From NCBI RefSeq assembly GCF_028689845.1, contig NZ_JAQVCH010000014.1, positions 1,307 to 65,306 of the forward strand: a DNA stretch of 64,000 nt, in the 5' to 3' direction. The position numbers and the translations under genes are program-made. The notes under the pieces are model-generated. The model was not told the DNA's origin. It did not search any database and worked only from the letters and a program-made list of their open reading frames with translations. Shown piece by piece: positions 8,123 to 11,100 of the stretch (its first letter is position 1; each line of letters opens with the position of its first letter). The DNA comes from Flavobacterium sp. GTDB taxonomy: Bacteria; Bacteroidota; Bacteroidia; Flavobacteriales; Flavobacteriaceae.

Positions 8123-11100
8123 ATGAAAAAACTATTTATTGCTTTGGTGTTTTTTTTATGCGGTGTTTCAACCATTTTTGCTTCAAATTACAGCGATTGA
8201 AGCTTAGATACAAGTTTTACTCCCTGAGGATGAGCCAACAGTTTTATTTACTCAATAGATGAAACAAGTGATGAAAAAATAATCATAGCAGGAGCATTTA
8301 CAAGTTATAATGGCGTATCTAGAAATCGTATCGCTCGTTTAAATGTTAATGGAACATTGGATACCACATTTAATCCGCTTTTATGACCTAACAATACTGT
8401 TTTTTCAGTAACAAATTTACCAGACAATAAGATAATTATAGCCGGAAGTTTTACAAGTTATAACGGTGTTAGTAGTAATCGTATTGCTCGCTTGAATCAA
8501 GATGGTACGCTTGATACTACTTTTGATATCGGTATATGAGCTAATAATACTATTAATACTTTAGAGGTTTTACCAGATGGTAAAATAATTATAGCTGGAA
8601 GTTTTACAAGTTACAATGGCGTACCCAGAAATCGTATCGCTCGTTTAAATCAAGATGGTACACTTGATACTACTTTTGATATCGGTTTGTGAGCTAATAA
8701 TCCGATGAATCCACTAAATACTGCTATCTTTTCAATAGCTGTTATGTCAGACGGGAAAATTTTAATCGCATGAAGTTTTACAAGTTACAATGGAGAAGCA
8801 AAAAACCGTATTGCTCGTTTAAATCCTGACGGCTCAATGGATACCACTTTTAATACGGGTATATGACCTAATAATGATATTACCTCTATTGCTTTGACTT
8901 CAGAAGGGAAGATAATTATAGCAGGATATTTTTTGAATTATGATGGACAATCAAGAAATCGTATAGCTCGTTTAAATCAAGATGGCTCACTTGATTTGAC
9001 ATTTAATGTAGGTGCTTGAGTGGATAATATTATTTTTCCGATAGTTGTTTGACCCGATGATAAGGTAATTATTTGATGACGTTTTATTAACTATAACGGT
9101 GTGACAAAAAATCGTATCGCTCGTTTAAATCAAGATGGTACACTCGATACTACTTTTATATCAGGAGTAGGAACTAATAATGAAATTAGATCTATTGCAT
9201 TATTTTCAAACGGAACAATTATTTTAGGTTGAAATTTTACCTCCTATAATGGAGTGAGTCGCACACGTGTGGCACGTCTTTGATATAGCACATCAATTTC
9301 AATAACGGCACCAACCAAATTATCCAATACATCCATAACAGATACAGCTATTACCGTAACAGGGACATCAAGTATTTATGCCACAGGAGTAAGTATTGAC
9401 TTATCTTCGACAGCGAGTGCCAGCAATCTAAATTGTACCCAAACCAGTGGGACTCAAGTGGATTGTACCATTAGTATAGATAGTAGTGGAACGCTAGTAA
9501 TTAGAGCAATAAATGCCAACGGAGCAAGCATTACCCAAAGCGAATCAAACTATGTAATAGATACAATTCCACCAAGTGTTCCTAATTTAATGGTAGATAT
9601 TCAAACGCCTTATTCGATTAATTCGCCACTGGTAGAATTTAATTCTACCGATAATATCGCTATTGATTATTGTTTATTAAACTATTTTGAGGATGACAAC
9701 GTGGTGGGCACTACAAGTGGAGCACTCACGAGTATAAATCCTGCTGTAAGTCCACTTATTGTTGCTCTTGACCCAGACCAGATTCTCCATACCATTACCG
9801 TGAGATGTTTTGATACCGCTGGTAATTTTGCCCAAAACAGTATTACCTTTCCACCCATTGTTGCTTTTAATGCTCCAACCCAAATAAGTAATACTCCCAT
9901 AACTGATGCTACTGTAACCATTACGAGCCCCAATGGGAATGATATTGACTCGATTGTTTTGACCTCCAATAGTAGTGGAGCATTTCTAGGAGCATGTAAT
10001 CCAATCACAGGTGTCTTTGGGCAATACCTTTCACCTGTTACATGTAGCCTTGAAGGAATTACCCAAAGCATGACCATTCAAATCGATGCCAGAGATGTTC
10101 TCACTAATGCAGTTGGGCAGAATTCGATGTCTTTTATAATTGATACGGTAAGTCCAAGCATTTCTATTACAGCCCCTACACTTGTAAGTCATACCGGAAT
10201 TTCAAATACAACTATTCGTGTAACGGATGATGTATTGATTTATGCCACGGGAGTACAATTATCGTGAGCATCTACGGCTCTAATTTCAAATTTTGTTTGT
10301 ATACAAACAAATTCTACTACGGTGGATTGTACTTTACAAATAGATGATGATGGAATAATAATCATTGAATGACAAGATGCAGCTTGAAATATGATTACAC
10401 AATCGCAAAGTGGCTATATTGTAGACACAGTTTATCCAGTAATTACACTACTTAATGATGTAAATCCGGTATTAAATTCCGGAGATACGATTACCGTGAA
10501 TGTAAGTGATGATATTCAAATTGATGAGTTAAGTTTGTTGTATGGATTCAGCCCAGATGCTCTGTGTGATGTGTCAGATGATTATTTATATCCTTATCAA
10601 TCAGGTATTTGAATTTACATTGATGAAGACGCAAATAATGGGCAATATCTTTGTTTCCAAGCCAAAGACCACGTGGGAAATACTACCTATCTTGGTACAA
10701 GTCAACCACTTTTATTAGACGTTGTTGGACCAAGTATTGTTTCCTTAAGCGGTTGAAATTACACCCAAGAGGTTCATTTACCTTATGAAGAGTATGGATA
10801 TACTGTGAGCGATAATTATCGAACAGGGAATGATATTGTTGTCCTTGTAACAGGAGCTGTTAATACTTCGGTTTTGGGAGAATATATTTTGTATTATACT
10901 CCAATAGACGCTTTGGGAAATGTATGAAATACGGCAACAAGAACAATAACAATTGTAGATACCACAGCTCCAACAATTGCTTTAAACGGAGCAAACTCCT
11001 ATTTGGTTGCTTACGGAAAAGTGTTTGATGATCCTTCAATAAGTTGTAGTGATAACTATTGGTCAGGTACTGATTTGGTTGTTACCATTTCGGGATATAA

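Follow-up and report, generated by a model that had tools for sequence, protein, structure and literature searches.

A gene that reads TGA as glycine, with its closest homologues in recoded Patescibacteria, in a standard-code Flavobacterium-type contig

A 64,000-nucleotide stretch of a Flavobacterium sp. assembly (GCF_028689845.1, contig NZ_JAQVCH010000014.1, positions 1,307 to 65,306; hereafter the window, with coordinates counted from its first base) carries a gene for a large surface protein, at 8123-11995 on the plus strand, in which TGA behaves as a glycine codon. The flanks of this gene follow the standard code, its junctions with them are physically continuous in independent assemblies, and its closest homologues belong to recoded Patescibacteria. 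We consider it probable that this gene, together with a toxin-antitoxin pair that also uses TGA as a sense codon, was recently acquired from a Gracilibacteria-type source using translation table 25 (code 25, UGA = Gly) by a strain-variable Flavobacterium defence island, where these genes would be untranslatable.

The surface-protein gene spans 1290 codons, from the ATG at 8123 to a TAA at 11993-11995, and stays open only with TGA as a sense codon. Its ~3.9 kb contain 27 in-frame TGA codons, no internal TAA or TAG, and two TGG codons. Fourteen of the TGA codons lie in a region of tandem repeats (8198, 8225, 8231, 8384, 8537, 8690, 8771, 8864, 9017, 9050, 9074, 9077, 9230, and 9281), and the remaining 13 lie beyond it (10265, 10370, 10385, 10610, 10754, 10925, 11123, 11216, 11222, 11228, 11321, 11696, and 11891). 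The other five frames of 8123-11995 hold 38 to 93 TAA and TAG codons each (68 and 87 in the two other sense frames), and from these off-frame densities the probability that a frame of 1289 codons would be free of TAA and TAG by chance is ~1e-31 to 1e-39. Approximately one-quarter of the glycines in the surface protein are written as TGA. Under the standard code, the same reading frame would stop at the TGA at 8198 and give a 25-residue product.

The hydrophobic N terminus of the translation suggests a putative signal peptide (8123-8185, plus strand), and 8198-9286 on the same strand encodes seven tandem delta-60/DUF5122 units (Pfam PF17164). The units occupy 8198-8350, 8351-8503, 8504-8656, 8657-8830, 8831-8983, 8984-9136, and 9137-9286, and the match to PF17164 reaches 341.9 bits against a cutoff of 27 (E = 2e-104) in seven stretches. 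Each unit has ~51 residues with the signature GxF-tsYNG-...-riARLn-DGslDtsF and presumably forms one blade of a beta-propeller. A repeat search returned a family with a period of 153 nucleotides (nt) and 60 to 81% DNA identity among units. The sole length change among the seven units is a 7-codon insertion encoding PMNPLNT at 8702-8722, in the loop after the Gly-x-N-N motif of unit 3.

According to the original prediction, these repeats interchange GGN and TGA in paralogous columns and thereby provide an internal control for reading TGA as glycine. Using the D-G-[ST]-[LM]-D anchor to delimit the seven units, we built a MAFFT alignment and converted it to codons (listed here for units 0 to 6). 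Four columns combine TGA with GGN: column 0 (TGA, then GGA, GGT, GGT, GGC, GGC, GGT), column 9 (TGA, then CTT, GGT, GGT, GGT, GGT, GGA), column 11 (TGA in six units, then GGA), and column 38 (GGA, GGA, GGA, TGA, GGA, TGA, TGA). Together they account for 11 of the 14 repeat TGAs. One more falls in an Ala/Gly column (column 37: GCA, GCC, GCT, GCA, GCA, TGA, GGT), and two fall in non-Gly columns, namely column 29 (ACA, TTA, TTA, ATG, ACT, TGA, TTT; the TGA at 9050) and column 55 (AAT in six units, then the TGA at 9281). Four of the seven TGA-containing columns had a Gly majority, compared to 2 of the 51 columns without TGA (P = 0.0011, Fisher test), and the partner codons of TGA cells were GGN in 30 of 48 cases, versus 28 of 1854 for other non-Gly codons.

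The codons quoted in the original prediction were all found at their sites (GGA at 8291, 8444, 8597, and 9170; TGA at 8537, 8690, 8771, 8864, 9074, 9077, and 9230), and the codon-aware alignment and enrichment test that it had proposed came out in its favor. It had also named an alignment of TGA with mixed residues as the result that would count against it; most of the repeat TGAs do not behave in this way, but those at 9050, 9074, and 9281 stand outside the GGN columns. Its description of a GG doublet before F..YNG was accurate for the TGA and GGN codons cited but not for the motif as a whole: five of the seven units have Ala-Gly, and the TGA at 9074 lies in the Ala column.

We next turn to homologues of the protein, which were sought with a query carrying X at every TGA, so that the search was not biased to glycine. 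The propeller yielded 7885 homologues at E ≤ 1e-5, with 45 to 54% identity to Bacteroidota and other members. The best 120 of these, all in the standard code and with a median Trp content of 0.39%, served as the control for the repeat part. In the 120 homologues, the columns facing the repeat TGAs have a Gly majority in 12 of 14 cases and are never Trp columns; Gly stands opposite the TGA at 8771 in 119, at 9230 in all 120, and at 9077 in 116 of them, while the residue opposite 9050 is Gln (106/120) and that opposite 9281 is Asn. Beyond the repeats, 13 TGAs remain; of these, 10385 (within D-A-A-G-N, 26/30) and 11123 (22/29) face Gly in standard-code homologues, and the others face small residues but never Trp.

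Over the whole gene, Gly-majority columns were found for 14 of the 24 testable TGA codons, 47 of 68 GGN codons, and 12 of 944 other codons (P = 2.5e-18 for TGA versus other codons; P = 0.45 for TGA versus GGN). The mean glycine fraction of the homologue column was 0.50 at TGA, 0.65 at GGN, and 0.054 at all other codons. Since the homologue columns of TGA match those of GGN codons, TGA acts as a glycine codon in this gene. The claim that the gene uses TGA as a synonym of GGN is therefore upheld, with the paralogous repeat columns, the 120 DUF5122 homologues, and the standard-code Patescibacteria homologues of the C-terminal part (see below) in agreement.

The DNA around the gene follows a different rule. 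When open reading frames (ORFs) were delimited by TAA and TAG only, the 33 other genes of the window (13,813 codons, ~760 of them GGN) had no internal TGA, and besides the TGA-sense loci, internal TGAs were present only in antisense shadow ORFs. Several genes also end at TGA in compact arrangements. The stop of a histidine kinase gene (TGA 55345-55347) overlaps the next ATG, at 55344, as ATGA (55344-55347). A response-regulator gene stops at TGA 56097-56099, one base short of the end of the convergent radA (56101), and read-through would append 158 codons antisense to radA. The gene at 15095-16996 stops at TGA, with the next start at 16998, and a cyclodipeptide synthase gene in the 4.3 kb that precede the window shares its first bases with the TGA stop of the gene before it (locus L022, 2058-2061). 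On the standard-code side of the 5' junction, the SBF-family transporter gene (7169-8026, plus strand) has no internal TGA and stops at TGA. Such overlapping and abutting stops are local proof that TGA means stop in the carrier DNA.

The window's seryl-tRNA synthetase belongs to a cluster, formed at 90% identity, in which all named proteins come from Flavobacterium sp., and a core neighbor is a peptidase with a type IX secretion system (T9SS) tail. Given these two features, the TGA-free genes, and the TGA stops, the carrier is a standard-code, Flavobacterium-type contig. ARAGORN reported no tRNA-Gly(UCA) or other suppressor tRNA in the 64-kb window, its only tRNA being a tRNA-Asn, and the window contains no release-factor gene. 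TGA is not used as sense across the carrier's genes, and the carrier does not belong to the Gracilibacteria/Absconditabacteria (JAEDAM01) lineage. The repeats thus serve as an internal control for the surface gene, as had been proposed, but not for the genome stretch around it, in which neighbors are free of internal TGA and several stop at this codon. The surface gene is a foreign, Gracilibacteria-type gene and is not proof that the organism decodes TGA as glycine; one recoded gene gives no basis for inferring the code of a whole contig.

A second TGA-sense locus was found by screening TAA/TAG-delimited ORFs that were not covered by standard ORFs. It consists of a RelE/ParE toxin gene (14276-14563, minus strand; 95 codons, three in-frame TGA) and a putative antitoxin gene (14563-14793, minus strand; 76 codons, two in-frame TGA), the stop of which overlaps the toxin start by one base. 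The toxin matches Pfam ParE_toxin (PF05016) over its full length (46.7 bits, cutoff 23; amino acids [aa] 6-92 over profile positions 1-89), and this match needs read-through of the TGA codons 42 and 53. Its nearest homologues, P0184 and P0185 (67 to 70% identity), have W at the same three positions, and in P0185 a further W stands at the nearly invariant Gly of LRVGxYR; we take these W residues to be TGA translated with code 4 (UGA = Trp). In more distant toxins of the standard code, codon 42 frequently faces Gly (N-P-F-P-x-G), and in alignments to toxin structures from the PDB the TGAs lie in a variable loop from which the residue is not assignable. Given that W occupies both the shared TGA positions and a near-invariant Gly in the closest relatives, the toxin-antitoxin module is also of code-25 origin. 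The antitoxin had no family match, and its putative role follows from its position; the 76-aa gene was also called in Logan contig L002.

Between the surface gene and the toxin-antitoxin patch is a gap of 2.3 kb with a 102-codon ORF and a gene for a GmrSD/NsnA-like endonuclease with an HNH domain (12574-13917, plus strand). The latter gene contains 31 GGN codons and no TGA and is therefore not written in a TGA-using code. The foreign DNA may thus be patchy, or the GmrSD gene may have had a standard-code history.

Beyond the repeats, the surface protein consists of an array of Ig-like domains (9287-11200, plus strand; Pfam PF16403, Bact_surface_Ig-like, two stretches, the best at aa 952-1025) and an S-layer-homology (SLH) domain (11621-11749, plus strand; Pfam PF00395, 40.3 bits against a cutoff of 20.8, aa 1167-1209). 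In the Ig-like motifs D-x-A-G-N and p-G-x-Y-t-v-t-Y, the Gly is encoded by the TGAs at 10385 and 11123, respectively. SLH domains usually come in threes; a single SLH stretch was detected in this protein. Bacteroidota DUF5122 homologues end in the T9SS sorting tail PF18962 rather than in SLH, so the architecture of the surface protein is foreign to its carrier. By analogy with the large surface proteins of epibiotic Patescibacteria, it may have been an adhesin in the donor.

The five best matches to the C-terminal 903 aa (P0121-P0123, P0125, and P0126), with 35 to 52% identity to the query in alignment A1, contain 4.7 to 6.8% Trp and little Gly, which is the signature expected of code-25 genes translated with code 4. 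Conservation in the alignment starts where the repeats end, extends to the stop codon, and includes cysteine pairs and the SLH-type tail. At the SLH-domain TGA (11696), its column has G in P0123 and W in P0121 and P0122, which we again take to be TGA translated with code 4, the DNA confirming this for P0122 only. Among the five matches, in-frame TGA was confirmed from DNA for P0122 and P0123 only. The P0122 gene contains 80 in-frame TGAs, every one rendered as W; 9 of the 10 other genes examined on its contig contain TGA, and the serine hydroxymethyltransferase gene of this contig has TGA at the invariant Gly of GGHLTHG, QGGP, and TTRG, as aligned to solved structures. In the code-25 locus L005, TGA makes up ~4% of codons. 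The next-best matches were standard-code Patescibacteria (Saccharimonas, Nomurabacteria, and Patescibacteria group).

A profile-guided scan of 185,579 genomes, one per species, gave seven confirmed loci, all in Patescibacteria, and no relative of the C-terminal part in Bacteroidota genomes. Two of the seven loci are TGA-recoded and are labeled Candidatus Gracilibacteria (116 in-frame TGAs) and Candidatus Peribacteria (54), while the other confirmed loci, in Saccharibacteria and Dojkabacteria, use the standard code. Opposite TGA, the recoded homologues have Gly more often than any other residue and never Trp. The locus with 54 TGAs (L006, CAYWIJ010000004.1) is labeled "uncultured Candidatus Peribacteria bacterium," and Peribacteria/Peregrinibacteria have been reported to use the standard code; either the label or this generalization may be off.

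At the N terminus, P0121-P0123 carry FG-GAP/VCBS repeats where the surface gene has the DUF5122 propeller; one type of beta-propeller has taken the place of another. Public gene calls render TGA-sense genes with code 4 in P0121-P0123, P0125, P0126, and P0183-P0185 and in loci L002 and L005, and this rendering is a systematic annotation artifact for code-25 DNA in metagenome protein sets. Within the surface gene, a 159-codon antisense ORF (9682-10161, minus strand) had tblastn matches in all the Patescibacteria loci; it is a shadow of the conserved sense strand and no gene. Apart from this artifact, tblastn with all window proteins detected no backbone genes common to the window and the Patescibacteria loci. 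A search of 7000-13000 found no direct or inverted repeats or insertion sequence ends flanking the surface gene, only the 153-nt tandem family, and promoter and terminator scans gave signals at chance level, which are uninformative on expression. Relative synonymous codon usage and tetranucleotide comparisons of the gene, the island, the core, and the code-25 loci did not discriminate among them, all being AT-rich.

Independent evidence for the junctions came from per-run Logan assemblies reached by exact-protein look-ups, in which every contig was 100% identical to the window. Run SRR15237803 supplied contigs covering 1-8226 (plus 4.3 kb upstream) and 10845-17362, SRR22315505 supplied 1-8658 and 9115-15779, and SRR24313857 supplied 11508-12619; the three run accessions gave no match in the literature. 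On the 5' side, contigs L001/L022 and L023 run from the SBF gene through the spacer into the first 104 to 536 nt of the surface gene (up to five TGAs), ending at 8226 and 8658, respectively. On the 3' side, contig L002 (9115-15779) joins the last 2.9 kb of the surface gene to the GmrSD gene, the toxin-antitoxin pair, and the next standard-code gene. The contig breaks at 8226, 8658, and 9115 all fall within the 153-nt tandem repeats, which k-mer assemblers are unable to resolve. A chimera at the surface-gene junctions is thus unlikely.

The island itself is delimited on one side by the tRNA-Asn(GTT) gene (32870-32944, minus strand), which separates it from the Flavobacterium core. Two wastewater-metagenome contigs (L015 and L020) match the window with 99.6 to 99.7% identity from 37356 to 32870 and then diverge. 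Neither the window nor the 4.3 kb upstream contains an attachment (att) repeat, that is, a copy of the tRNA-Asn 3' end, or the sequence that follows tRNA-Asn in related strains, and no left island boundary was found.

Taken together, these results suggest that the surface gene evolved where TGA means glycine (translation table 25), and that its donor produced a secreted protein with a signal peptide, seven DUF5122 units, Ig-like domains, and an SLH anchor. Both TGA-sense loci would have come by horizontal transfer, from a code-25 bacterium or a mobile element of such a bacterium, and would have entered a strain-variable defence or integrative island beside the tRNA-Asn of a Flavobacterium. The transfer appears to be recent, since the three ORFs, 1461 codons in total, are free of TAA, TAG, and frameshifts. 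In the recipient, release factor 2 would act at the TGA at 8198 and cut the surface protein short at 25 residues; with termination at the first TGA, the genes would be silent passengers, and the recipient is probably unable to translate them.

Several observations weigh against this explanation. The collections searched contained no close donor copy: the best match in alignment A1 is 52% identical, and exact-peptide scans with the C-terminal 903 aa in the 185,579 species genomes and in Joint Genome Institute (JGI) metagenomes recovered no relative, neither a close donor nor a second carrier, which leaves ORF integrity as the sole basis for calling the transfer recent. The tetranucleotides of the surface gene correlate better with the island and core (r = 0.44 to 0.57) than with three code-25 loci (r = 0.14 to 0.36). 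No independent contig covers 8659-9114, within the repeats, and the three runs are identical in sequence and may represent one population. No Logan contig bridges the tRNA-Asn, the island contigs ending at 32899, k-1 bases into the tRNA, so that attachment of the island to the core depends only on the deposited 66-kb contig. The two wastewater contigs part from the window exactly at the tRNA-Asn 3' end; this implies that the island is strain-variable and would also fit a mis-join at the tRNA. Finally, the failure of host translation is judged from the 64-kb window.

Among the other explanations, we give almost no credence to the reading of TGA as Trp (code 4) or selenocysteine, or to a pseudogene decayed by GGA-to-TGA nonsense mutations. 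Gene callers did render these ORFs with code 4, TGG is scarce in the surface gene, and two repeat TGAs face Gln/Leu and Asn rather than Gly, but Trp accounts for a mean fraction of 0.004 at TGA columns, no column is rich in Trp or Cys, and the share of TGAs in non-Gly columns (10/24) is on par with that of GGN codons (21/68; P = 0.45). We therefore rejected code 4 for lack of a Trp-rich TGA column and a selenoprotein for lack of any Cys column among 27 TGAs (selenocysteine insertion sequence elements were not searched for). Ordinary decay was rejected as well, since the 27 TGAs come with no TAA, TAG, or frameshift against 68 to 87 TAA and TAG codons in the off frames, a pattern incompatible with random mutation. 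It is also highly improbable that an assembler spliced Gracilibacteria DNA into a Flavobacterium contig. The surface gene and its flanks follow different codes, the sequence may stem from a metagenome-assembled genome, and part of the repeats lacks independent coverage; against this, the 5' and 3' junctions were crossed without mismatch in the assemblies of three runs, the contigs break in the repeats as k-mer assemblies would, and a chimera would require four precise intergenic joins around two separate loci. Stop-codon recoding is known as a regulatory device in phages, and the lack of disabling mutations in all three TGA-sense ORFs (1290, 95, and 76 codons) could mean that the recipient translates them, through a suppressor tRNA-Gly(UCA) encoded elsewhere in the genome or by a co-resident element, or through conditional read-through, with TGA as an expression switch. 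We regard this as quite improbable, given that global suppression would harm the host genes that terminate at TGA; moreover, ARAGORN found only the tRNA-Asn in 64 kb, and the island has no phage genes. A stop-codon-recoded prophage was rejected, with no phage structural or lysis genes and no suppressor tRNA in the window.

A further alternative places the error at the tRNA-Asn: the island (1 to ~32870) would belong to a code-25 bacterium or its mobile element, mis-joined to a Flavobacterium core at this conserved gene. The TGA genes would then be native and functional, and the TGA-free backbone would be a recent or code-agnostic mobile element. Consistent with a mis-join, none of the three TGA-sense ORFs shows any damage, Logan contigs coming from the island side end after 30 nt of the tRNA, nearly identical strains diverge exactly at the tRNA 3' end with no att repeat, and Gracilibacteria phages that avoid TGA and are co-targeted by Bacteroidetes spacers are known (Liu et al. 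2023, PMC10746230). However, ~25 backbone genes have no internal TGA, whereas in L005 this codon is found in nine of ten genes; the backbone operons contain ATGA stop/start overlaps and compact TGA-then-ATG junctions; and backbone tetranucleotides correlate with the Flavobacterium core at r = 0.58 to 0.65 but with code-25 loci at only r = 0.10 to 0.25. Island and core contigs also co-occur, at 100% identity, in the same runs, and a contig break k-1 bases into a tRNA is normal for any repeated tRNA gene. Since the backbone is TGA-free inside, uses TGA stops, and resembles the core in composition, a mis-join to a code-25 genome is disfavored, and we consider it unlikely.

The island also carries defence and recombination genes. 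It encodes a large serine recombinase (3561-5102, a PHROG integrase), a type IIG restriction-modification enzyme (Eco57I/MmeI-like, 27559-30462), and a NUMOD4/HNH endonuclease (31392-32555). A cluster at 15095-22156 encodes SIS/HAD, PRTase-CE (PADLOC PRTase_III-A), ORC-CDC6-like, CARF6-type (PADLOC E = 2e-112), and PfkB-like proteins; no CRISPR array was found in the window, and the cluster looks like a stand-alone CARF/PRTase conflict system. Further island genes encode a helix-turn-helix (HTH) protein, a LytTR regulator, and the SBF transporter. The island has no phage structural genes, its PHROG matches being confined to the integrase, an HTH regulator, and an HNH endonuclease. A 605-residue protein (668-2485) had only a weak match to an adenosine-deaminase (editase) domain (E = 0.006), and the cyclodipeptide synthase gene (locus L022, 1384-2061) is located a short distance before the window begins.

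The code-25 genes could be the physical trace of an uncultured Gracilibacteria/Absconditabacteria-type epibiont or predator associated with this wastewater Flavobacterium, with DNA passing from the parasite, or from a code-shuttling mobile element, into the defence island of its host; we put this forward tentatively, as a possibility that is more doubtful than the transfer itself. The island might also be an element whose cargo is expressed only in a code-25 partner. The Flavobacterium core of the window occurs in wastewater metagenomes, JAEDAM01 Gracilibacteria have been described from activated sludge (PMC13293708), and Bacteroidetes spacers also target 5 of 9 Gracilibacteria phages that keep free of in-frame TGA in order to function in both hosts (Liu et al. 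2023, PMC10746230); the ecology is thus compatible with transfer. The hosts of Gracilibacteria/Absconditabacteria known so far are Gammaproteobacteria (PMC13293708), with Bacteroidetes hinted at by CRISPR spacer matches only (PMC10746230).

An alternative genetic code is usually seen as a firewall to gene flow; in this case, the firewall was apparently crossed physically and yet still works in translation. If the contiguity holds, the window would offer a natural, datable case of a dead-on-arrival transfer between codes and a new marker of bacteria that exchange DNA with uncultivated Gracilibacteria/Absconditabacteria. If the association is true, code-incompatible "fossil" genes could identify the hosts of code-25 Patescibacteria. 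For annotation, the case is a warning that such genes are shredded under code 11 or given tryptophan under code 4.

The UGA = Gly code of SR1/Absconditabacteria and Gracilibacteria (translation table 25) was described previously (Hanke et al. 2014, PMC4032931), and a 2026 review, which cites Campbell 2013, Rinke 2013, and Ivanova 2014 for this code, restricts the recoding to the Gracilibacteria/JAEDAM01 lineage, SR1 included (PMC13293708). The surface gene resembles table 25 genes in having TGA at the glycines of its homologues, a TAA stop, and recoded Patescibacteria as its closest homologues; it differs in that only three genes in 64 kb are affected and in that the Flavobacterium carrier lies outside the lineage known for the code. 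Its seven ~51-residue tandem units and their signature are shared with DUF5122 surface proteins (PF17164), although, unlike those of Bacteroidota, the protein ends in Ig-like and SLH domains, as in Patescibacteria proteins. With surface proteins labeled Gracilibacteria or Peribacteria (P0121-P0123; L005, L006, and L012), it shares the C-terminal 900 residues at 41 to 52% identity end to end. P0121-P0123 have cysteines, Ig-like repeats, and an SLH-type tail in common with it, along with W aligned to surface-gene TGA, for example in LMKxSEDG and FAxGxGx (TGA confirmed for P0122), but have an FG-GAP/VCBS N terminus and come from genomes in which nearly every gene contains TGA.

As with the phages of Gracilibacteria and Absconditabacteria (PMC10746230), the island represents mobile DNA between code-25 and standard-code hosts; unlike them, it is without phage structural genes and its cargo genes are dense in TGA. 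It also resembles tRNA-adjacent defence islands of Bacteroidota in being strain-variable, in beginning at a tRNA 3' end, and in combining a recombinase, defence genes, and a toxin-antitoxin pair, from which it differs by its cargo in another genetic code and by the missing att repeat and left boundary. The full-text literature searched described no standard-code bacterial genome with code-25 genes in it, which is not proof of novelty. Whereas code 25 and DUF5122 proteins are already known, the new part would be the presence of intact code-25 genes in a standard-code contig.

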